A stretch of DNA of 64,000 bases, from positions 4,288,001 to 4,352,000 of the forward strand of contig CM000153.2 of NCBI GenBank assembly GCA_000004695.1. The letters are read 5' to 3'. Made by a program: the position numbers and the translations under genes. Under the pieces are notes generated by a model. The model was given only the letters and a program-made list of their open reading frames with translations, did no database searches and was not told the origin of the DNA. This document shows, piece by piece, positions 6,974 through 54,099 of this stretch (position 1 is its first letter; each line of letters begins with the position of its first letter). The stretch comes from Dictyostelium discoideum. Its lineage: Eukaryota.

Positions 6974-8644
6974 TTAAAAAATTACAATCAATGTTAATGA
7001 TATCAACAATAGAAGTAAACCATTTATATTTAAAAATGATGATCCACCAATAAATTCTTTTTCATCAGAACCTTCGAAATCATTGTTACCTGTTAAAGTA
7101 CCAATTGAAGAGGATGGGTTTGGTTTTTTGGTGGAACCCATTGTGGTTAAGGAAAAAGAGGTTGTAGAGGTAAAAGTTGATGAAGTTGATGATTGAGTCG
7201 CAGAAGTAGTAGTAGTAGAAGTAGTTGCAGTTGTGGTTATTTCTAAATCATAAGAAATAAATGGTATTGATGGATCAGAAATATATGAAGCAACAACACC
7301 GACTAAACCAATATTATAATCTAATGCTACTTCATTTGATTCATAATTTGATCTTGTATCTATCCATGATTCATTTAATGGTGGACCACCAATCAAAGCA
7401 CCTGGTAGTTGATAAACATTATTTATTGGTTGATTAATATCTTTGGTTGTAGAATGATGAGCAGCACGATGATGTGGATTTCTTGGTGCTTTTGGTCCAT
7501 ATCCAGAAATGAATGATTGTTGTTTTGGATTCTCTCCAAGAACATATAACAATTGATTCTTTGCAAATGTTGAATATTTTGTTAATTCACTACCACCTGT
7601 TTTTGTATAAATTGATTGAATTAAAGCCATATTCATTGAATATCTTGCTGATGCCCATTGTCTTAACCAAGCTAAACCACCATTTGTATATTTAATACCA
7701 CCATTTGGTAACCAATAGTTGAGAGAATTTTCAATTTTAGTTTTATAATCTTGTTCTTTGCTTAATTGATATAATAGTATACCAACACCTAATCCTTTAT
7801 TATCCCAACTGAATTCATTTGCATAACAAACTTCATTGTTATTTAAATAGTATGATTTTGAATTTGTTAAATAATTTTGAGAGTTTGTTGCTTTGTAAAG
7901 CCAAATTGAACCCCATGCAATTTCATCATTATAACCACCTGATTGGTAAAATTCAATAGCATTTCTAATTGTATCAGTATACTTTTTCATTGGTGAATTC
8001 ATAGCAAAATCATAAAGTTTCTTTGAATGTTCTAAACATAGTTGAGAGTATGCTGGATTACTAGTTTTAAATACAATTGATGCGGATGATAATGCTGCAG
8101 ATGCCTCCATTGCAAGATCAGTACCTGGGTTATTGGAATCGATAGTATAGATATCACGAACATAGTCTATATTTTCTGGTGGTTGCCATACGTTATGATC
8201 AACATATGCATTACCAACTTGACCAATAAATACATTATCAGATGTATGTGATGCAATTAAGAAATCTGTACCCCATTTTAAAACTTCTTTATAAAGTGGA
8301 GACAAACCACATTTTTCAATATTTCCAGAATATTCAATATAAATCCAACTTAACATTGTCATTGAATAAGCCATTGGAAAGTTAAATTTAACACCATCAC
8401 CAGCATCGAAATAACCTTTTGATAAATCACCATCACCATTTGAATCAACTGATGAACCTGCACTCTTGTCATTTAATACTGAATTACCTCTCCATGGAAT
8501 ATCATTATCTGATAATCTACCTGCTCTTTGAGCTTTATAAAATAATAATGATTGTTTTAATAAATAACAACCATTATCACAATTAATACAATTTAAATTT
8601 ATTATTAATAATACAAATAAACCTATTAAATTAATTAATAATTT

Positions 8645-41333: not shown

Positions 41334-43840
41334 ATGACAACTACAATACCATTAAAAGAAGCAGTGGTTGTAATTTTAGATATAGGATTAGGTATGACAA
41401 GTAAAGATAGTGATGGAACAACAACAACAACATCATCAATTGAAGATGCATTAAGATCAGTTACATTATTATATCAACAAAAATTAATATATGGTAAAAA
41501 GGATCAATTAGGATTAGTTTTAATTGGAACAAAAGGTACAAAAAACAATTTACAAGATGATGGATATCAACATATTACAGTTGTAAGTGATATTGAAGAA
41601 CCATCAATTGAAACATTGAAATATTTAGAGAATTTAGCACCTGGTGAATCAAAAGGTGATGTCATTGATTCATTAATAGTTGCAATGGATATGTTAATTA
41701 GAAAAACTGAAAATAAAAAATATCAAAAACGTATTTTCCTTGTTACAAATGCAAGAGATCCAATTAATACTGAAGATTTATCAATTGTTAGAGATCAATT
41801 TAAAAAAATAGATGTAAAATTAAATATAATGTAATTATTATTATTATTATACTTTTTTAAATTTATTTTTTAAATGTATAAATTTTTATATTAATAAATT
41901 TTTATTATTATTATTATTATTATTTTTATTTATTTATATATAAAAAATAGAGGTGTTGACTTTTTAGAAGAAATAGAAGAAAATAATATGGATACAAGTA
42001 ATAATAATAAAAATAAAAGTTTAAAAGAAAAGAATGAAATATTTTTAAGAGAATTTGCAGAATCAGTTGATGGAGTATTAGTACCAGTTAAACAGGCATT
42101 AGAAATGATGAGCTTTTTTAGATCACAATCAGTAATGACTCGTACAAGTTTTAGAGGTGCATTAGAAATTACACCAGAATTAAAAATACCTGTATGGGGA
42201 TATTTAAAAATGAAACAACAATTATTACCATCCTTAAAAAAGATTTCATCAATAGCTCAACAACAAATTGAGCAACAACAACAACAACAACAACAACAAA
42301 ATAAAAATAAAAATAATGAAGATAATGAAGATAATGAAGAAGGTAAACCAAATATTACATTAGATGTTAATCAAGAAGTATCATATTATAGTATTACAGA
42401 TCCAGATAATGAAATTTTAAAACCAGATTTATTAAAAGGTTATAAATATGGTAAATCATTAATACCATTTTCAAAGATTGATGAGGATCAATTAAAATAT
42501 TCATCAAGTAAATGTTTGAAAGTTGTTGGATTCACAGATCGTAAATCAATACCAATCTATTATAATATGGGTAATACTGAAGTATTTGTATCACAACCTG
42601 GTGATAAACAATCAGAGGAAGCATTATCATCATTTATACATGCATTGGTTGAGACTGATCAAGTTATGGTGGTAAGATATGTAAAAACAATGAATGGATC
42701 ACCTTATCTTGGTTATATGATCCCACATGTAAAGAGTGATTATGTTTGTCTATATTATAATCATTTACCATTGGCTGATGATATTAGACAATATCAATTC
42801 CCACCAATTTCACCAAAGAATCCGTTAACTAGGAAATCAAATATACCAAATGCAGAACAATTGGAAGCAACTCAACAACTCATTGATTCAATGGATTTAA
42901 TGAAATCGGAATTCGATGAAGATGGTGACCCAATTCAAATGTTAAAACCAAGATTCACATACAATCCTTTACTTCAACATTTCTATCAATGTCTTCATCA
43001 TAGATCTTTACATCCAAATACTCAAATTCCAAAATTGGATCCTATAATAGCAGAGTATATTAACCCAGATCAAATCATTATGAATAAATCAAAACAATCA
43101 ATTAAAAACTTTGCAGATAAATTCCCCCTCACTAAAACCACTGTATTCTCTAAAACACCTGCTATCTCTGGTGGCAATACCAATGGCACAACATCCAATA
43201 CAAACAATACAATGATTGGTGGTGTAAAATATCATTGGAAAGATGGTATGTTAATTGGTGAGGAAATTAATTTAGATTCCTATGTCACCGATGATGGTTC
43301 CGAGGCTAAAAAGAGAAAGGTTAATGATTTCTCAGAGTTTTCATTGGATAAGTTGGTCTCTGGTTATGTTACAGAGGTTGGTACAATTAATCCTGTTCAA
43401 AACTTTAAAGATATGTTAAATAGAAGAGATATGGATCTTGTGGATAAAGCAATCACTTTAATGAAGGAAAGAATACTTCAATTGGTTAATGATTCACTTA
43501 GGGATCAATATTATCAAAAGGCTTTCGAATGTATAAAAGAATTAAGAGTTGGTTGTATTAGAGAATCAGAAGCTGAACAATTCAATGGTTTCCTCAAAGA
43601 TATGAGATCTTTATTTCAATCAAAGAAAAGAGATGACTTTTGGCAATATATCACTGCTGATGTAACTTCAATCCTTGGTGAGAAATCAATTAATTTAATC
43701 ACTCAAGATGAATGCGATTCTTCTGAAGTTACTCAAGAAGAGTTGGATCAATTTTTGGATAAAAAGGTTAAACAATTCAATCCTCCTCCAATTACAAATG
43801 TTAATACAGATTCGGTTGATGACTTATTCGATCAAATTGA

Positions 43841-43844
<4 letters not shown>
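41334..43844 (+). CDS. ku80: Ku80 (XRCC5), the DNA end-binding subunit for non-homologous end joining. Exons: 41334..41830 and 41951..43844; about 796 aa.
   Basis: The N-terminal vWA domain is EAVVVILDIGLGM…QLGLVLIGTKGTKNN…DALIVAMDML. The Ku core (GYKYGKSLIPFSKIDEDQLKYSSSKCLKVVGFTDRKSIPIYYNMGNTEVFVSQPGDKQSEEALSSFIHALVETDQVMVVRYV…GYMIPHVKSDYVCLYYNHLPLADDIRQYQF) is collinear with human Ku80 ([33 protein letters not shown]…[25 protein letters not shown]…[27 protein letters not shown]). The junction is GTAATT…AAAATAG. Confidence 0.85.
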
Positions 43845-44036: not shown

Positions 44037-44233
44037 ATTTATTTTTTTTTTTTGGAAAATTGAACAGGAAAAACAAAATTTAATTATTTATATATTCTAT
44101 GATTCCTTTAATTGATGAGTTTTGCAATTCATCTTGAGTTATTTCCACATTATTAATATAAAAAAAAAAAAAAAAAAAAAAACTTAATTATAGTACTAAA
44201 TTTTTTAAGAAATTGATTTTATTTTTATTTATT

Positions 44234-45250
44234 TTACAATTTTACCATCATTTTACCAGTATTTGTACCTTTGAATAATGCAAGAAAAGATGGCACCAAT
44301 TGATCGAAACCATTATTAATGGTGTGTCTATCTTTGAGTTGACCAGATTTATACCATTGAGCCAATTCTTTTAATGCTTCAGCATGTTTGCTTGCATAGT
44401 TTGCAACGATGAAACCTTGTAATTTTGAGGAAGTTTTCAAGAGATAACCTTCAATACGTGGGCCAACATCCTTTTCAGTAGAGTTGTATTGTGAGATTAC
44501 ACCGCATAGTGGAATACGGGCAAACTTATTCAAGTGTGGCCAAATTGCATCAGATACAACACCACCAACATTCTCCCAATATATATCAACACCATTTGGA
44601 ATTGCTTTTGCTATATCGTCTTTATAAGTTGGTGAATTGTAATTTACACCGACATCAAAACCTAATTCATCGACGATGTATTTTATCTTCTCTTCGGAAC
44701 CTACGATACCTACAACTCTGCAACCTTTGATTTTACCAATTTGACCGACCAATTGACCTACTGCACCGGCTGCAGCGCTGATTACCATGGTTTCACCTTG
44801 TTTTGGTTCTGCGATCTCTTTGAGACCGTGATAAGCTGTTAATCCGACCATACCCAAAACTGAGAGGAATGATTCCAATGGCGCTAATGTTGTATCGATT
44901 TTATTTGCATATGGACTGTTTGAATTGTAGATGAATTCAGATTGCCATGGTAAATGACCCATAATGTAATCACCTACTGAATACTTTGATGCTGAGCCTG
45001 CTTTTGTAACTTTACCAATAGCATATCCAACAATTGGTTTACCAATTTCAAATGGTGGGATATATGATTTACGTGTTGTCATACGACCTCTCATATATGG
45101 GTCTGGTGAAACTATCTCTAATTTTACTACTACTTCTTCATTTTTTAATTCTTCAATTGAAAATTCAAAAGTTTTCTCTTCAAAATCCTCCAAAGTTGGT
45201 GTACCACTTTCGATGTGATTTTTTAATACAATTTGTTTACTAAGAACCAT
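44234..45250 (-). CDS. NADP-dependent oxidoreductase of the medium-chain dehydrogenase/reductase superfamily (prostaglandin reductase 1 / leukotriene B4 12-hydroxydehydrogenase-like), 338 aa, intronless.
   Basis: Rossmann motif AAAGAVGQLVGQIGKIKGCRVVG. It also has an N-terminal GroES-like domain (KLEIVSPDPYMRGRM) and the PTGR1-like C-terminus VPSFLALFKGTNTGKMMVKL. Confidence 0.8.
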   Translation of the reverse strand: MVLSKQIVLKNHIESGTPTLEDFEEKTFEFSIEELKNEEVVVKLEIVSPDPYMRGRMTTRKSYIPPFEIGKPIVGYAIGKVTKAGSASKYSVGDYIMGHLPWQSEFIYNSNSPYANKIDTTLAPLESFLSVLGMVGLTAYHGLKEIAEPKQGETMVISAAAGAVGQLVGQIGKIKGCRVVGIVGSEEKIKYIVDELGFDVGVNYNSPTYKDDIAKAIPNGVDIYWENVGGVVSDAIWPHLNKFARIPLCGVISQYNSTEKDVGPRIEGYLLKTSSKLQGFIVANYASKHAEALKELAQWYKSGQLKDRHTINNGFDQLVPSFLALFKGTNTGKMMVKL

Positions 45251-45747
45251 ATTTTTTATTTTTATTTTATTTATTTATTTATTTATTATAAATAATTATT
45301 ATATTACTTTTATAATTAGTTTTTTATTTATTTATTTTATTTTATTTTTTAATCTTTTGTTGAGTGAAAATATAAAAAAAAAATAAAAAAGAAATCTTTT
45401 TTTATACTAAAAAAAAAAAAAAATTAAATTAAAAAAAAAAAAAAAAAATTAAATTAAAAAAAAACTTTTTGGATATTTTTATTTTTTTATTTTTTTTTTT
45501 TTCTAAAGGGTAAAAATTGTTGTCATTTTAAAATGACGATTTCCAAAAATATGAAAAAGTAAAAAAGATAAAGAACTAATCTTTCCCTATTCTTTAAAAT
45601 TTCATCACGGGTTAACATATTTATATATTATTCTTTGTGACAATAATTATTTTGTAGGCATTCTTTAAAAAAATGAAAAATATGGGATATTTTGGCATTG
45701 GAATGATAAAAAAATAAAAAATAAAAATGAAAATAAAAAATAAAAAT

Positions 45748-45779
<32 letters not shown>

Positions 45780-45783
45780 GTTT

Positions 45784-46123
45784 GAAAATCATTAATGCTG
45801 GGAAAAAGTAGGTGTGAATACTTTTTAAATTTCAAAAAAAAAAAAAAAAAAAAAAATAAAAATAAAATTTTTTATTTTTATTTTTTAAAAAGTATTAAAA
45901 AGTAGGAAGTATACTTTTTTTGACTTTTTTAAAATATCAATTGACTACTCTTGCAACTTTTTTGGTTCTTTTAATTTAAGAAACAAAAAAAAAAAATTGA
46001 AAAAATAAAAATAAATAAAAAAATAAAAAAATAAAAAAAAATATAAAAAAAAAAAAAATTTTCAAAATACTTTAAAAGTAAAATTTTCAAAATACTTTTT
46101 CCAGCATTGAAAATCATATTATC
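45784..46123. promoter_or_regulatory. Cluster of palindromic AAAAAGTA(N7-8)TACTTTTT elements. An inverted pair shares the core AATGCTGG(G)AAAAAGTA (forward at ~45793-45811, reverse at ~46093-46111). The cluster lies in the shared intergenic region between the oxidoreductase gene (-) and the Cys-rich secreted protein gene (+).
   Basis: Read directly. 45803-45830 is gaaaaagtaggtgtgaatacttttta. 45893-45921 is attaaaaagtaggaagtatacttttttt. 46059-46125 is ttttcaaaatactttaaaagtaaaattttcaaaatactttttccagcattgaaaatcat, whose reverse complement matches the left copy over ~17 nt. Confidence 0.4.
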
Positions 46124-46491
46124 TTAAATTATTAATAATAAATAAAAAAAAAAAAAAAAAAAAAGAAGTAAATTAATAAAATGACAAAAGATTAATTTTT
46201 TTTTTTTTTTTTTTCATTTGTTAAATTATTTTTATTTTTTTGGTATAAGAAAATATAAAAAAAACAATTTTTAATTTAAAAATAAAAATTCAATTGATTA
46301 AAAAAATAATAAAATTATTGAAAAAAGTAAAAGGTAAAGATTTGTTGGTAGTTTTTAAGATATTTTTAAAAAAAAAAAAATAATTTAAAAAATAGAAAAA
46401 AAAAAAAAAAAATCTAAAAAATGACAAAATAAAAGATTTTTTTTTTTTTTTTTTTTTTCCAATAATAACATATACAAACTTTCAAAAAATA

Positions 46492-47187
46492 ATGAAACTA
46501 TTTTTATTAATTATTAATTTAATTTATTTGATTAATTATTCAAATTGTTCAACTATATTATTTGCCAATTTTTTTTCATACGCAACAAGTGATTGTAGTG
46601 GAGAATCAATTGGATTTGGATATTCTTTAAAAATTGATGAATGTTTGGGTGCATTTCAACCATTTCAACAAGTTGATGATAATTTTTGGAAAATTGAATT
46701 TAATAAAGAATCAAATTCAATAATTACAACAAGATATAGTGAATGGAATTTTAATTGTAATGGTTCAAGTGATACTCAACAATTTATTATTGGAAATAAT
46801 GAATGTTCAATAATGCCAAATTTCACAGTGATTGAAACTGGTACAATCTCTGGTATGAGTGATATTTGGTATACTCGTGCTTCTATTAGTATTGGTAAAC
46901 CAGAATATACACCAGGTTCCTTATTATCAGTTAGAGAATATTATAATGATAATTCTAGAGGTAATTGTGATATGAATAATTTTCAAACTGCCGTTACCTA
47001 CTCTCAAAATTTAAAACTTTCCATTCAAGATACAAATGAATCAGAAACTTGGTTTTGTAAAAATAATGAAGCACTCGAAAACTTTTGTGATTTCAATGGT
47101 AAAAATTGTCAAATATTCGATAATACCATATCATGCAATCCTTCAGAACAATCTGGAAACCAAAATTGGTATTGTGTAACACCTTGA
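46492..47187 (+). CDS. Secreted cysteine-rich, N-glycosylated protein, 231 aa, with signal peptide MKLFLLIINLIYLINYSNC.
   Basis: Complete ORF with a hydrophobic leader, about 14 Cys and multiple NxS/T sites. It has the same general character as the 17951..18598(-) protein but no clear sequence identity. Family not recognised. Confidence 0.5.
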   Translation: MKLFLLIINLIYLINYSNCSTILFANFFSYATSDCSGESIGFGYSLKIDECLGAFQPFQQVDDNFWKIEFNKESNSIITTRYSEWNFNCNGSSDTQQFIIGNNECSIMPNFTVIETGTISGMSDIWYTRASISIGKPEYTPGSLLSVREYYNDNSRGNCDMNNFQTAVTYSQNLKLSIQDTNESETWFCKNNEALENFCDFNGKNCQIFDNTISCNPSEQSGNQNWYCVTP

Positions 47188-47493
47188 TTTGCTAACTCAA
47201 ATAGGAAATAAATTAATTAATAATTTTTAAACCACATTATTTTTTTTTTTTTTACTTAAACACACAATTTTTTTTTTTCTAAATAATTTTAATTGATAAT
47301 AAGAATTATAATATATTTGATTTAATTTGATCAATAAATTTTTAAAAAGGGGAATAATTATAATTATTAAAGACTCATAAATATTAAATTAAATTCTCTA
47401 ACTGTATGATTAAAAAAAAATGTAAAATTGTAAATATCAAAGGAAATATGTTAAATAAAAATAAATAAATAAAAAATAAAAATAAAAAATAGA

Positions 47494-47642
47494 TTTTGGT
47501 GAATTTCAAACCCCACACACCCAATCTATTTTTATAATAATTGTAATTATTTTTTTTAATTTCTCAACAAACCACATACAATTGTGTGTAATAAAAAAAA
47601 GTAACGAAAATAGAAAAGTGTGAATTCGAACCCCCACCCATT
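47494..47642. promoter_or_regulatory. Two C-rich/CA-rich direct repeats (GAATTTCAAACCCCACACACCCA at ~47498-47520 and GAATTCGAACCCCCACCCA at ~47620-47640) 150-300 bp upstream of the 47795 gene. They are G-box-like on the opposite strand.
   Basis: Both copies are visible. GC-rich islands are rare in this AT-rich background. The regulatory role is inferred. Confidence 0.3.
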
Positions 47643-47794
47643 TCGTTCAATTTAAATTTTATCTTTTTTATTTATTTAGTTTTACCTGTTTTTATTTTAT
47701 TTTATTTTTTTCATTATTTTTTAATTTTTTTTAAATTTCCTTTTTTTATTTTTATATTTATTATTTTATACAATTAAATAATTACAGAATAATT

Positions 47795-47965
47795 ATGACA
47801 AAAGTTAAATTTATTGCATTAAAAAACTATATCAAAGGTGGATATCCACAAGAAAAGGATTTTGAAACAAAAGAAGTAGATTTAGATGAAACATTGGGTA
47901 ATAATCAAATCCTTGTAAAATTGATTTACATTTCAGTTGATCCATATGTAATTATTAAAAATAAG

Positions 47966-48006
<41 letters not shown>

Positions 48007-48934
48007 ATTTAATTTAATATTAAAATTTATTTTATATTTTAAATTAATTTAATTTAAAAAGGTTCGTGGAAGAATGAGTGAAGGTAAATCATATATTGAT
48101 CCATTTAAGATTGGAGAACCAATTGAATGTGGTGGTGTTGGTAAAATTGAGAAATCAAATTGTAGCAAATGGAAAGTTGGTGATTACATTGCCAATAATC
48201 AATTCCCATGGAAAGAGAAATTTGTTACTGATGGTAATAACCCAGGTTGTTATAAAGCTGATAAGAACGCTGCTCCACTTCCATGTTATCTCTCTCTACT
48301 TGGTATGACTGGTATGACTGCCTATTGTGGTCTAACTGAAATCGGTGAACCAAAGAAAGGTGAAACATTGGTGGTGAGTGCTGGTTCTGGTGCCGTTGGT
48401 CAAATTGTTGGTCAAGTTGGTAAAATCATTGGTTGTAGAGTAATTGGTATTGCTGGATCGAAAGAAAAGTGTGATTTCATGACTAAGGAATTAAGATTCG
48501 ATGTAGGTATCAATTATAAATCTCCAACTTACAAAGATGATATTGCAAAAGCTGTTGAGAAAACTGGTGTCGATATCTATTGGGAGAATGTTGGTGGTGA
48601 AATAACTGATGCAGTTTTGCCACATTTAAACAAATATGCACGTATTCCACTTTGTGGTGTAATCTCTTCCTACAATAAAACCGAATTGGATGTTGGCCCT
48701 CGTATTCAAATTTATCTCTTGAAATCATCTGCAAAAATGCAAGGTTTCATTGTTTTTAACTACATTGATAAATTCCCTGCTGCCTCTAAACAATTGGCTG
48801 AATGGTATAATCAAGGTAAAATCAAAGATCAACATTCAATTAAAAAAGGCCTTGACCAAGTTGTACCATCATTCCTTTCATTATTTAATAGTGATCATCT
48901 TGGTAAAATGATTATTAAAATTGCTGATGAATAA
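47795..48934 (+). CDS. Second PTGR1-like MDR-superfamily NADP-dependent oxidoreductase, paralog of 44234..45250 on the opposite strand. Two exons: 47795..47947 and 48062..48934; about 341 aa.
   Basis: Exon 1 (MTKVKF…LIYISVDPY) ends at a GTAATT donor. The intron is mostly an A31 run plus AT-rich sequence ending AAAAAG. Exon 2 reads VRGRMSEGKSYIDPF…AGSGAVGQIVGQVGKIIGCRVIG… The paralog has uninterrupted DPYMRGRM at the same position. Confidence 0.85.
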
Positions 48935-49463: not shown

Positions 49464-52400
49464 ATGAAAAGGTTTTTCATTGTAATATTATTTATTTTAC
49501 TTGTCTGCATTTTTAATGTAAAATCAGAAGAACAATTGGGGGAGATCGAAATATCTAAAAATAGTTTTTCAATTGACACAAATGCCATCAATGTAAGTAT
49601 TAATAAAATAAATTGAAATTATTTATCAAAAACTGGCAAAAAATTAAGCCCTTTGTTTCATTTTTTATTAATTTTTATTTTTTTTTTTTGACTTTTTTCT
49701 TTTTTTTTTTTTTTTTTTTTAATCCCAAAGGCCGAAATTAATTATGTTATTGATAATAGTATAACCAAACCAAAATTAATAGTTACATTATTATCAGGGG
49801 ATGTAAATAGCATAGAAGATATAACATCAATTTCAAAAGATAAATCAACCTTGACATTTGGTGATTTTTCATCATTATCATTAGGCAATAAACAAAGTAA
49901 TAATAATAATAGAATTGTATTAATGATAGCGACAATCACAGGTTCTTTATTATTCATTAGATTTAATATTGGTTTTAATAAATCAACAACATTAATAATT
50001 TTAATTATTGGTACAATCTTTTTAATTGGGTCAAGTCATTCAATAACATTATCAGAAGTTTCAATTCGTATTGATATTAAAGTACCATCAACATTTAAAT
50101 TTGAAAAATTAGATTTGAAATTAGGTTCTGGTTCTTCAAATATTATTGGTTTATCTTCAAATTCAATCAATATTGATAGTTGTTTAAATTTAAAAGATCA
50201 CAAAATCAATTTATCAGACACAACAATTACATCAGCTTTAAATATTTGTTCAACTAAAAATATTGATATTAAAAATTTAAAACAATCATCAAATTCTTTA
50301 ATAAATTTAAAAACAAATTCAAATATTACTTTAAATTTTGGTGTAGGTAATTAATTATTATATATAAAAAAAAAAAAAATAATAATAATAATACATACTA
50401 AAAAAAAAAAAAAAATAGAATGGATATAGTGGTTTATTAGATATTTATAGTAATAGTTTAAAAATCGATGAAGCTTGTGATATTAAAGTGGATGGTTTAA
50501 ATACTACTGGTAGTTGTAATGAAGGTACTTCTTCTAAATTAGTTATCAATGCTAATGGAGTCACAATCACTGGTACTACTCCAACAACCACTCCAACAAC
50601 CACTCCAACAACCACACCAACAACTACACCAACAACTACTCCAACAACTACTCCAACAACTACTCCAACAACTACTCCAACAACTACTCCAACAACTACT
50701 CCAACAACTACACCAACAACTACACCAACAACAACACCAACAACAACACCAACAATAACTCCAACAACTACACCAACAACTACACCAACAACTACACCAA
50801 CAGATTCATGTCCAACAACATCAACATGGAGACCAACAATGGCATCATCAAGTTCACCAAGTTCACCATCATTTTCAAGTGTAACACCAATATTAGATTT
50901 TAATTTTGATAAAAGCAATTTAGGATTTAGATCAAGATATAAGTTCAATGAAAAAAGTATTTCAGATGGACCAAATGGTATTGCAAATTCATTTTCTATT
51001 AATTTTAATGAAACCTATTCACCAGATAGTAATTGGTTAATTTCAAAGATACCATCACCAGCATTAAGAGCCAACGTAAATTATGTATTCTCTTTTAATT
51101 TTAAATTGGGTCAGGCATTATCAAGTGATAATACAATTTCTTCAGTGACAATTTCATTTTATAGTCCAATTGATTTACCAGACCCAAATGTATTGGAATA
51201 TTTCGATCAACCAACTGCTTCACCATTATTTACAAAAACAATTACCACTGGTAGTTTCTCAAGCTCAACAACTTTTCAAGCAAATAGCATATCAATTAAA
51301 CCAACCACTGATATTGGTTTATCATTAATTGCAATTCAAATCATTCGTACCAAACAAAATAGTATTCCAATTAATTTATATTTTAGTGAAATGAAATTAA
51401 GCATTCCATCGAAATCAATTATTGATCCAACAACATTTTTAACTAAAGATTCAGAATTGATTAATATTCCAAAAGCATCAGCATCATTTGATTCACAAGA
51501 TCCATCAACATGTCCATATTTAGCAACTGATTTAGTTCATTGGCATGATAAATCCATTTGGAGTTCTGGTATTGTACCTTTACCTAACGCATCGAGTAAT
51601 ATTATTTTACCAGCTGGTAAAAGAGTTTTAATTAGTCCATGTTCAATTTCACAAACTGATATCTATAAAAAAATAACCATTCCACCAACAAGTGAATTGA
51701 TTTTTAGTGATGTCAATATGACAATGCATGTTCAAGATATCTATGTTCAAGGTAAATTCACTATGGGTACAAAAGAATGTCGTTACAATGCCTATATAAA
51801 TCTAATTTTTCATGGTACTAAAACCACCAGTGATACTATTGCCACCAATTTCGGTTCAAAAGGTATTGCAGTTGCTTCGGGTGGTTTCATTTCAGTACAA
51901 GGTAAACAATATCATAATACTTGGAGTAAATTATCAACCACTGCATGGTCTGGTGATTCTACAATCTATATTCAAGATTCTGTAAATTGGGAAGTTGGCC
52001 AACAGGTTTTAATAACAACAAGTGTCTACAAGGATGAATTGTACAATCAGAATGAGGTTTTAACAATTGCTGCAATCTCTGGTAAGAAAATTCAATTTAC
52101 AAGTGCACTTAAATATTACCATTATGGTGGTCAAGAATATCAAGCAGAGGTTGGTTTACTCTCAAGAAGAATCGTATTCCAAGGTGATCAAAGTTCATCG
52201 GATCCTCAACAATTTGGTGGTCATGTATTGGTTAGTGGTGAAGGTCAATTCTCGGGTTTATCATTGGTTCGTTTTGGTCAAAAAAATATTAAAGGTCGTT
52301 ATCCACTTCATTATCATTTGGCAAATAATGTTCAAAAATCTTATATCTCTGATTGTTCAGTTATTGATAGTTATTATCGTTGTTATACAATTCACGGTAC

Positions 52401-54099
52401 CAATGGTGTGACATTAACTAGAAATGTTGCATTCAATGCCATTGGTCATTGTTATTATTTAGAGGATGGTGTAGAAGTTGATAATACAATCTCTTACAAT
52501 TTAGGTGCTTTTGTTCATACCATTGGCACACCGGCCGCTGGTTACAATCAATATGGTCAAGATTTCCTACAATCATCCGATCTTACTCAACCTGCCGATT
52601 CAGCTGCTGCATGTTATTATATTACAAATGCAGCAAATTCTTTCATTGGTAATGCAGCATCTGGTGGTTGGTCAGGTTTCGCATTCCCAAATTTACCACG
52701 TCCAATAGGTAATCATCTTTCAGTTTCAATAGTACCATCACAATTTATTGCAAAAGTTTGGGAAGGTAATACAGCTCATAGTTCAGGTTATTATTTCGAA
52801 TTTGGTGCTTCAATTTATGTTGGTGGTTTATTAACTTATAATGATGCCACTGGTTTATTACAATATAGTAGTGGTAGAGAATCAAGAGATACCTATTTGA
52901 CTGGATATAACACTTCAGCAGCAGTTTGGATGAGATTTAACAATACTAAAGTTTATCTTAGCAATAGAGGTTTATCAATGTGGGGTGAAAGAACTGAGGC
53001 AGTCAATTTGGAGAGTCATGACTCTAGAAGACCTGCTTCATTATTTGGTGAAGCATGGTTATCAAATGCAATCGTCAATGGTCAATCGGGTAATATCTTA
53101 TCAGCAAGTGTCGAATACACTAGACAAGGTTTCCAATTTTATGATACTTACGTTCAGACCATCATTAGTAATATCATCTTTAGAAATTTTATAAAGTATC
53201 AAAATGCATCATCCAATGAAGAAGATAATAGAGTCATCATTAGTATGACACATAGTTCAGAATTCCTTCCACAAGGTATATCAGTATCAAAGAATATCAC
53301 AATTCAAAACACTGCTACCTCACAATTCATCGGTCATAATATTCCTGTCAATAGTACTGGTAGTAGTAGATTCTTTAATTTCATCGATTGGGATGGTAGT
53401 TTAACAGGTAAAAATGTTCCAACCCTAATTGGATCTCATGAGAAATTTTGGCAATTCGATAATACTTGTTCATTCAATTCAGATTGGAATTGTTATGTTT
53501 GTACTAAAGGTACAAGAGAGATTGCCAATGTTCAATTCTGGGTACCAGGTTTAATTTCAAGAGATGATGCTCAAAATAATGATGATTCAATTGGTAGCAT
53601 TTCATTATTTGGTGATGGAATAACTGATCGTCGTTCAACTAGAGTCATTCATACCGCTGGTATCACTGGTGTTAGTAATTCAGGTTGGTACCTTTATTTA
53701 ACCGATGGTACTCCAACTTATATGAAAATTTGGTTAGCTCAAGTAATTTACAATAATTATCTATTCATTGCAATTCCTTATCCAGCAACTACAACATTCT
53801 CTGTTAGTTCAGAGTATAAATATAATAGTAATTACAATTTCAATTTCACTCAAACATCTTCAGCTTCCGCAGTTAGAAGTGGTGATGGTAAGAAATATTA
53901 TTTCGATGGTACTCATTTATTCATTAAAGTCATTAACTTTAGATTAAATGGTACTGAAAGTTTTGATCGTGGTGGTGCAAAAGTTTACGATGTTTATTGG
54001 GAATTCCTCATTCATATCACTGCTTCAAATACAATAAAGCCACCAGTAAATGGTTTCTTTAAAGGGTTAACTGATACTTTACCATCTTCAAATTTGTAA
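49464..54099 (+). CDS. Large secreted G8-domain protein resembling CEMIP/TMEM2 (KIAA1199), which have a hyaluronidase-like fold. It has a signal peptide, a middle exon, a (TTTP)n mucin-like linker and a ~1100-aa G8/GG-type domain. Exons: 49464..49592, 49731..50342, 50419..54099; about 1470 aa.
   Basis: Signal peptide MKRFFIVILFILLVCIFNVKS. The donor is GTAAGT. The second donor GTAGGT is weak and less certain. A 29-copy TPTTTP repeat lies at 50573-50800. Downstream is VRFGQKNIKGRYPLHYHLANN…YRCYTIHGTNGVTLTRNVAFNAIGHCYYLEDG, then a cysteine-containing region (…CSFNSDWNCYVCTKG…). These are collinear with the CEMIP G8/GG region (…GRYPVHFHL…SRCVTVHGSNG…GHCFFTEDG…). The call is from memory of that family. 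Confidence 0.6.

Follow-up and report, generated by a model that had tools for sequence, protein, structure and literature searches.

Two paralogous reductase genes, which we call A and B, stand head to head (in divergent orientation) in the stretch of Dictyostelium discoideum DNA analysed here, a window of 64 kb, with a gene for a cysteine-rich protein, C, in between. Gene B has one short intron at a position where the coding sequence of A is continuous. Our analysis indicates that this difference is older than an earlier note on this DNA had supposed, that it is one of many in the Dictyostelium members of the family, and that its direction is finely balanced, with a slight lean to loss of the intron from A. 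The gene models, the paralogy of A and B, the conservation of the intron site, the purifying selection on both genes and the intron maps of eleven homologues we regard as near certain. All positions are those of the whole window, the proteins A, B and C were obtained by translation, and domains were called by Pfam. A+T content is extremely high in this region, and the coding islands have 30–40% G+C. The features of the two reductase genes are as follows.

44234–45250, minus strand: gene A, a single uninterrupted open reading frame (ORF) of 338 amino acids without introns, with ADH_N_2 and ADH_zinc_N domains; product identical to XP_637847.1 / Q54LY4.
45092–45097, minus strand: the site in A homologous to the B intron position, formed by codons Y52 (45095–45097) and M53 (45092–45094), with the boundary at 45094/45095.
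47795–47947, plus strand: exon 1 of gene B, 51 codons, ending in SVDPY.
47948–48061, plus strand: intron of gene B, 114 bp, GT..AG, phase 0, 97% A+T.
47966–48004, plus strand: A39 homopolymer within the B intron.
48062–48934, plus strand: exon 2 of gene B, 290 codons and a stop, starting with VRGRM.

The coordinates, the orientations and the motifs that the earlier note had quoted for the two reductase genes all check out, and the motifs are present in both A and B. The B intron starts with GTAATT and ends with AAAAAG; its removal restores the reading frame, and its retention would lead to an in-frame stop codon. When spliced in this way, B encodes a product of 341 amino acids that agrees residue for residue with XP_637849.1 / Q54LY2 of D. 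discoideum AX4, and a recursive search for GT..AG pairs returned 47948–48061 as the sole solution yielding this database protein. An intron of 92 bp in D. citrinum and of 75 bp in D. firmibasis interrupts the B orthologue at the same codon boundary and phase; the GT..AG ends and the phase are kept in all three species while length and sequence drift. The reference protein, the site common to three species and the constraint on exon 1 described below support the 114-bp intron that had been proposed for the plus-strand copy, and the site is indeed uninterrupted in the minus-strand copy, which runs on across 45094/45095 with no indel relative to B. Two details needed amending. The A run, described as an A31 run making up the bulk of the intron, is an A39 run that accounts for 34% of its length, and the junction lies before the valine codon, as DPY/VRGRM (a slash marks the intron position here and below), and not as DPYV/RGRM. 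Since homopolymers of A or T that reach 25 nucleotides or more occur 25 times in the window, the A run in the B intron is ordinary Dictyostelium non-coding DNA. The comparative evidence that this is a genuine spliceosomal intron is strong, with splicing itself predicted from the sequence.

If the intron call were wrong, B would be a disrupted pseudogene or a gene that begins at M56, and ORF callers run on the Logan contigs do give only a 286-residue ORF starting at M56. The contigs that hold this ORF (L012–L015), which are genomic in type and uninformative on splicing, start within the A run, pass from the 3' part of the intron directly into exon 2 and stop in the next A run. Homopolymers also delimit the Logan contigs for A. 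Against such a reading, the ADH_N_2 domain (residues 8–111) has its conserved beginning in exon 1, and exon 1 alone has a ratio of nonsynonymous to synonymous divergence (dN/dS) of 0.04–0.10 at a dS of 0.5–1.06 between species. The GT..AG ends and the phase have been kept in three species despite the changing length and sequence of the intron, and dN/dS for the whole of B is ~0.1. We therefore consider both a pseudogene and a start at M56 very unlikely, with next to no chance of either.

The claim that A and B are paralogous holds well: the two proteins belong to the same ADH_N_2 / ADH_zinc_N reductase family and are 58% identical at the amino acid level over their full length (196/340, E = 4e-145). 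No further copy of A or B was found in the 64-kb window. They are not, however, the recent paralogues that they had been taken to be. Their nucleotide identity is 66% and dS is ~1.09, which is saturated, and D. citrinum and D. firmibasis likewise have the two copies, head to head and each with the intron state that it has in D. discoideum; the spacing between A and B is 0.8–2.5 kb across the three species. Both the duplication and the intron difference are older than the split between D. discoideum and D. firmibasis. In comparisons of D. discoideum with D. firmibasis or D. citrinum, dN/dS is 0.10–0.14 for A and 0.09–0.11 for B, and both genes, which we take to be functional, are under purifying selection. 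We considered recent gene conversion between A and B and rejected it: identity between the codons for conserved residues shows no rise or fall along the gene, and the two sequences match exactly over 22 nucleotides at most, so any conversion between A and B must be ancient. Two related database models are of unusual length. The A-type model P0132 of D. dimigraforme (679 amino acids) is of double length, which could reflect a fused annotation or a real tandem duplication, and the B-type model P0123 of D. cf. discoideum (236 amino acids) is truncated, through either partial annotation or real decay.

Both proteins match the two Pfam domains well above the cut-offs (31 bits for ADH_N_2 and 31.8 bits for ADH_zinc_N), with 84.6 and 57.3 bits for A and 86.8 and 62.1 bits for B. 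The glycine motif (A/G-x-x-G-x-x-G) reads AAAGAVG in A and AGSGAVG in B, and G161, A162, G164, Y255 and N256 (the last two within ISxYN) are invariant across eight aligned homologues. By analogy with the structures of PTGR1 and plant AER, Y255 would be the catalytic, active-site tyrosine. In NCBIfam the best family is CurA (NF058644), with 344 bits for B and 333 for A, under the equivalog cut-off of 440; the second is LTB4DH/PTGR1 (TIGR02825), with 202.5 bits for B and 221.9 for A, under its cut-off of 579.85. The proteins belong to the zinc-free medium-chain dehydrogenase/reductase (MDR) group of LTB4DH, alkenal reductases and CurA, but neither is a named equivalog. The label "PTGR1-like" given by the earlier note is thus apt at the level of the family and fails as an equivalog assignment, since CurA scores above LTB4DH/PTGR1 and both cut-offs are missed. 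By analogy with the CurA/YfmJ type, A and B would catalyse the NADPH-dependent reduction of the C=C bond of alpha,beta-unsaturated aldehydes or ketones.

Introns were mapped in eleven homologues, which are all of the Dictyostelium homologues that the databases returned. In two database searches, one with a single sequence and one with a family profile, the A/B-type genes among the best 120 matches came solely from the D. discoideum complex, D. firmibasis and D. purpureum, and no group 1–3 dictyostelid or other eukaryote was among those matches. The positions are listed here by gene.

B-type genes of D. discoideum, D. citrinum and D. firmibasis: DPY/V, phase 0 (codon 51).
A-type genes of D. discoideum, D. 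citrinum and D. firmibasis: no introns.
P0004, D. purpureum: DPYLRG/RM, phase 1 (codon 54); GS/VVGQ, phase 0; LLN/FK, phase 2; GFI/VF, phase 1.
P0007, D. purpureum: LT/AY, phase 2; GS/IVGQ, phase 0; CPK/G, phase 2; LLN/FK, phase 2.
P0139 and P0144, third paralogue of D. discoideum and D. firmibasis, respectively: GGE/VS, phase 1.
P0043, third paralogue of D. purpureum: PIN/SG, phase 2; CPK/G, phase 2; RIP/VC, phase 1; with an odd micro-exon of 5 nucleotides.

P0004 and P0007 have four introns each and hold two sites in common (GS/VVGQ or GS/IVGQ in phase 0 and LLN/FK in phase 2), and the phase-2 site CPK/G is common to P0007 and the outgroup paralogue P0043. Because CPK/G spans the deepest split and two further sites are common to P0004 and P0007, the ancestor of the family already had introns. 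Genes A and B are without all of these ancestral introns, and intron loss has therefore certainly acted on both D. discoideum genes. In the P0043 model (L008 3729–3878) the micro-exon, AATTG, lies between two introns, and we found no single-intron alternative that keeps the frame; it may be real, a sequencing error or a mis-model.

The site of the B intron itself has a different history in D. purpureum. The earlier note had made its reading depend on the intron position being homologous among orthologues. We find that it is not the same: the first intron of P0004 (L006 8164–8230) lies 7 nucleotides downstream of the B site, at codon 54 in phase 1 against codon 51 in phase 0, and P0007 has no intron at the DPY site. 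P0004 has no GT at the B position, and B has no exon sequence that would permit the D. purpureum position. Introns 7 nucleotides apart could not have coexisted, which implies at least one gain or slide inside the clade of A, B, P0004 and P0007. The codons for the adjacent residues R-G-R are AGA GGT CGT in A-type genes and P0004 and CGT GGA AGA in B-type genes and P0007; this sharing was not used as evidence, since synonymous sites are saturated (dS ~1.1), D. purpureum is more distant still, and chance or splice-site constraint could account for it.

Nor is the orthology between the species straightforward. The full-length neighbour-joining (NJ) tree groups A with B (84%) and P0004 with P0007 (85%). 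Among the informative sites for these four sequences, 11 likewise pair A with B and P0004 with P0007, 9 pair A with P0007 and B with P0004, and 2 support the third topology. All six informative sites in B residues 165–262 pair the paralogues within species, and the C-terminus (residues 267–336) holds 6 of the 9 sites that favour the A–P0007 and B–P0004 pairings, the boundaries of both regions having been set after seeing the data. The pattern suggests an old duplication, after which the central part may have been converted between the paralogues, long ago, in both species. Flanking synteny gave no help with orthology, as a tblastx comparison of the D. purpureum sequences L006, L007 and L008 with the whole window matched reductase genes only. 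The comparison with D. purpureum that had been proposed for polarising the change thus yields an offset site, three or four further introns and mosaic orthology; this is not the clean case of gain or loss that it was described as, and it is not polarisable with the species available.

On direction, we lean slightly to a precise, cDNA-mediated loss of the intron from A, which we would put at about an even chance. Loss of this kind, through cDNA, predominates in Dictyostelium (Ma et al. 2015). Under this reading the ancestor of A and B would have been intron-bearing, and precise loss by the reverse-transcriptase model would be the cause of the difference. In the D. discoideum lineage the 3'-ward introns, still found in D. 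purpureum, would have been removed from both copies, and the last, 5'-proximal intron would have been removed from A only and kept by B. The sole intron of B is indeed the most 5' one, 15% into the coding sequence, and all three of the 3'-ward P0004 sites are empty in B. The absence of the intron from A is precise, with no indel in the pairwise alignment, though each of these sites may or may not have held an intron in the ancestor. We also count in favour of loss that the A sequence AGAG/GTCGT is that of the spliced junction of the P0004 intron. Across Dictyostelium genomes, 441 + 202 precise intron losses have been reported against 40 + 58 putative gains; the lost introns lay farther from the 5' end, and adjacent introns were lost together in D. 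discoideum (PMC4683709).

Several observations weigh against loss from A, and most of them speak for the opposite direction, a gain in the B lineage. In that case an intron would have been inserted between Y51 and V52 after the duplication, A would never have had it, and the P0004 intron would be the same intron after sliding or a parallel gain. P0007 and the three outgroup paralogues (P0043, P0139 and P0144) have no intron at or near the DPY site, and no A-type gene has one at the site. The P0004 intron, 7 nucleotides off and in another phase, is no proof of an ancestral intron at the B site, and the offset between codon 51, phase 0 and codon 54, phase 1 itself requires at least one gain or slide in the clade. 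If B and P0004 are orthologous, as the C-terminal sites that pair B with P0004 and A with P0007 suggest, one gain in the B lineage suffices and is the more parsimonious account. If the family is bacterial-derived, its root was intronless and every intron was once a gain. Ma et al. (PMC4683709) accept that genes which Dictyostelium owes to horizontal gene transfer (HGT) have acquired introns, counting 9 for D. discoideum and 19 for D. purpureum. On the other hand, gains are several-fold rarer than losses in Dictyostelium, and the NJ grouping of A with B and of P0004 with P0007, together with a homologous intron, would need a loss in A. The intron, at 97% A+T, shows no detectable source sequence or flanking duplication, and TAT/GTT is not a protosplice (MAG/R) site. 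We regard a gain in B as a serious contender, if with somewhat less than an even chance.

The introns of A could also have gone all at once, not singly, if A arose from an intron-bearing ancestor as a processed (retro)copy and was inserted beside its parent. Such an origin would fit with A being fully intronless in three species when its closest D. purpureum relatives have four introns, and D. discoideum is rich in reverse transcriptase (PMC4683709). However, A stands head to head with B, 0.8–2.5 kb away, in all three species, and it lies between a Ku80 homologue and B in conserved synteny. There is no sense-strand poly(A) remnant after the A stop codon, the run at 44160–44182 being a T run on the strand of A. 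The same facts would follow from a tandem inverted duplication of DNA and a later cDNA-mediated conversion, and we consider a retrocopy improbable, with only a small chance of being correct.

The bacterial affinity of the family bears on the question at a deeper level. Outside the dictyostelids, A and B have their nearest relatives among bacterial YfmJ/CurA-type reductases (P0010–P0120 and P0227–P0236) from Bacteroidota, Bacillota and Pseudomonadota, with 46–52% identity, and the top ten representatives of 50% clusters are bacterial or metagenomic, with no eukaryote among them. These matches raise the possibility of an ancient horizontal transfer of the family into Dictyostelium, a lead for a eukaryote-rich tree to follow. 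In a stronger form, A, B and the third paralogue would all descend from a bacterial YfmJ/CurA-type gene acquired by HGT, all of the ~10 intron positions would be gains made after the transfer, and the introns at codon 51, phase 0 and codon 54, phase 1 would reflect a 7-nucleotide slide or parallel insertions at a hot spot. We find this scenario rather doubtful. If it were true, the locus would offer a datable intron gain or intron sliding in an amoebozoan, and confirmation of the bacterial affinity would make the family a natural experiment, on a small scale, in how introns are acquired after horizontal transfer.

The neighbours of A and B, and the DNA between them, are as follows.

41988–43844, plus strand: Ku80 homologue with Ku, Ku_C and Ku_PK_bind domains, upstream of A.
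45777–47588: segment of ~1.8 kb between A and B that includes gene C and is lineage-specific.
46492–47187, plus strand: gene C, 231 amino acids with 11 cysteines, CfaA_B_C family; product identical to DDB_G0286307 / XP_637848.1.
50488–54099, plus strand: large protein with G8 and CEMIP beta-helix domains, downstream of B.

The gene order, including the Ku80 homologue upstream and the G8/CEMIP gene downstream, is the same in D. citrinum and D. firmibasis. Gene C is the cysteine-rich gene that the earlier note had placed between A and B, and that description stands: its product has a hydrophobic N-terminus and 11 cysteines, and residues 1–225 match the Pfam family CfaA_B_C (PF11912, counting-factor-associated) with 115.3 bits (E = 5.1e-33; cut-off 28.6). 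The protein is probably secreted, judging from its sequence. Gene C and the ~1.8 kb segment around it (45777–47588) are also present between A and B in D. citrinum (L009 5787–8000). In D. firmibasis, where the spacer between A and B is 0.8 kb, gene C is absent, with no trace of it by tblastn in L001, and two collinear blastn blocks, 45252–45776 and 47589–47775, match L001 7202–8000. The segment was either inserted in the lineage of D. discoideum and D. citrinum or deleted in that of D. firmibasis; since the D. firmibasis spacer lacks it, the three-gene arrangement is younger than the A/B pair or was secondarily lost in D. firmibasis.

Upstream of gene C, the lineage-specific segment holds an inverted pair, AATGCTGG(G)AAAAAGTA, at 45795–45812 and 46093–46108, together with several AAAAAGTA...TACTTTTT palindromes (45805–45828, 45887–45921 and 46066–46090). 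Since 14% of shuffles also give an exact 16-mer match, the pair may be due to chance. G+C-rich motifs that resemble a B box, GGTGAATTTCAAACCCCACACACCC and GTGTGAATTCGAACCCCCACCC, occur at 47498–47522 and 47618–47639, 150–300 bp upstream of gene B, with a similar GGTGTGTGAATTTCAAACACACAACC at the equivalent position in D. firmibasis (L001 ~7770–7800). These motifs could be a conserved promoter element or decayed tRNA-related sequence; ARAGORN and Rfam found no tRNA or structured RNA in the region.

Our findings should be set against what the annotation of this genome already contains. XP_637847.1 and XP_637849.1 are both annotated as "zinc-containing alcohol dehydrogenase" in D. discoideum AX4, and because the proteins A, B and C are identical to AX4 reference entries, the B intron is already part of the reference annotation. 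The gene models, including the exact intron of B, are known, and the discordance between the paralogues can be read from the annotation. We found no discussion of this discordance, or of the gene identifiers, in the searchable literature, and neither A nor B is in the supplementary lists of PMC4683709. The difference between A and B is one of many in the Dictyostelium family and is ordinary. The locus adds one more intron-discordant pair of paralogues, not polarisable, to a genus in which intron loss and gain have already been surveyed genome-wide. It should be mildly useful to specialists for its introns 7 nucleotides apart in close homologues, its mosaic, conversion-like signal and its bacterial affinity.

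Among known proteins, the nearest parallels to A and B are the bacterial CurA/YfmJ/YncB enone reductases (NF058644; PDB 4b7c and 5zxn), which have the same two-domain architecture and 46–52% full-length identity with A and B. The Dictyostelium genes differ from these in forming a clade of their own (98% NJ support) and in carrying spliceosomal introns. Animal PTGR1/LTB4DH (TIGR02825; 2y05 and 1v3t), PTGR2 and the plant reductases (2j3h and 4hfj) also match over their full length, and have in common with A and B the zinc-free MDR fold and the NADP(H) glycine and ISxYN motifs. By score, the relatives in the PDB run from the Pseudomonas oxidoreductase 4b7c (274 bits) through the plant double-bond/alkenal reductases (~240) and PTGR2 (234) to PTGR1/LTB4DH (185–192), so that PTGR1 and PTGR2, at 185–234 bits, are much more distant from A and B than the bacterial entry. 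For the intron, the closest counterpart is the survey of Ma, Che, Porceddu and Niu (2015, BMC Evol Biol 15:286; PMC4683709), which describes the same kind of event, the precise presence or absence of a short A+T-rich intron. As in that survey, the intron that was kept lies close to the 5' end, and D. discoideum has fewer introns than D. purpureum, here 0–1 against 4 per gene. That study used one-to-one orthologues, whereas the A/B locus presents the same kind of difference between paralogues, with a 7-nucleotide offset and a mosaic signal.

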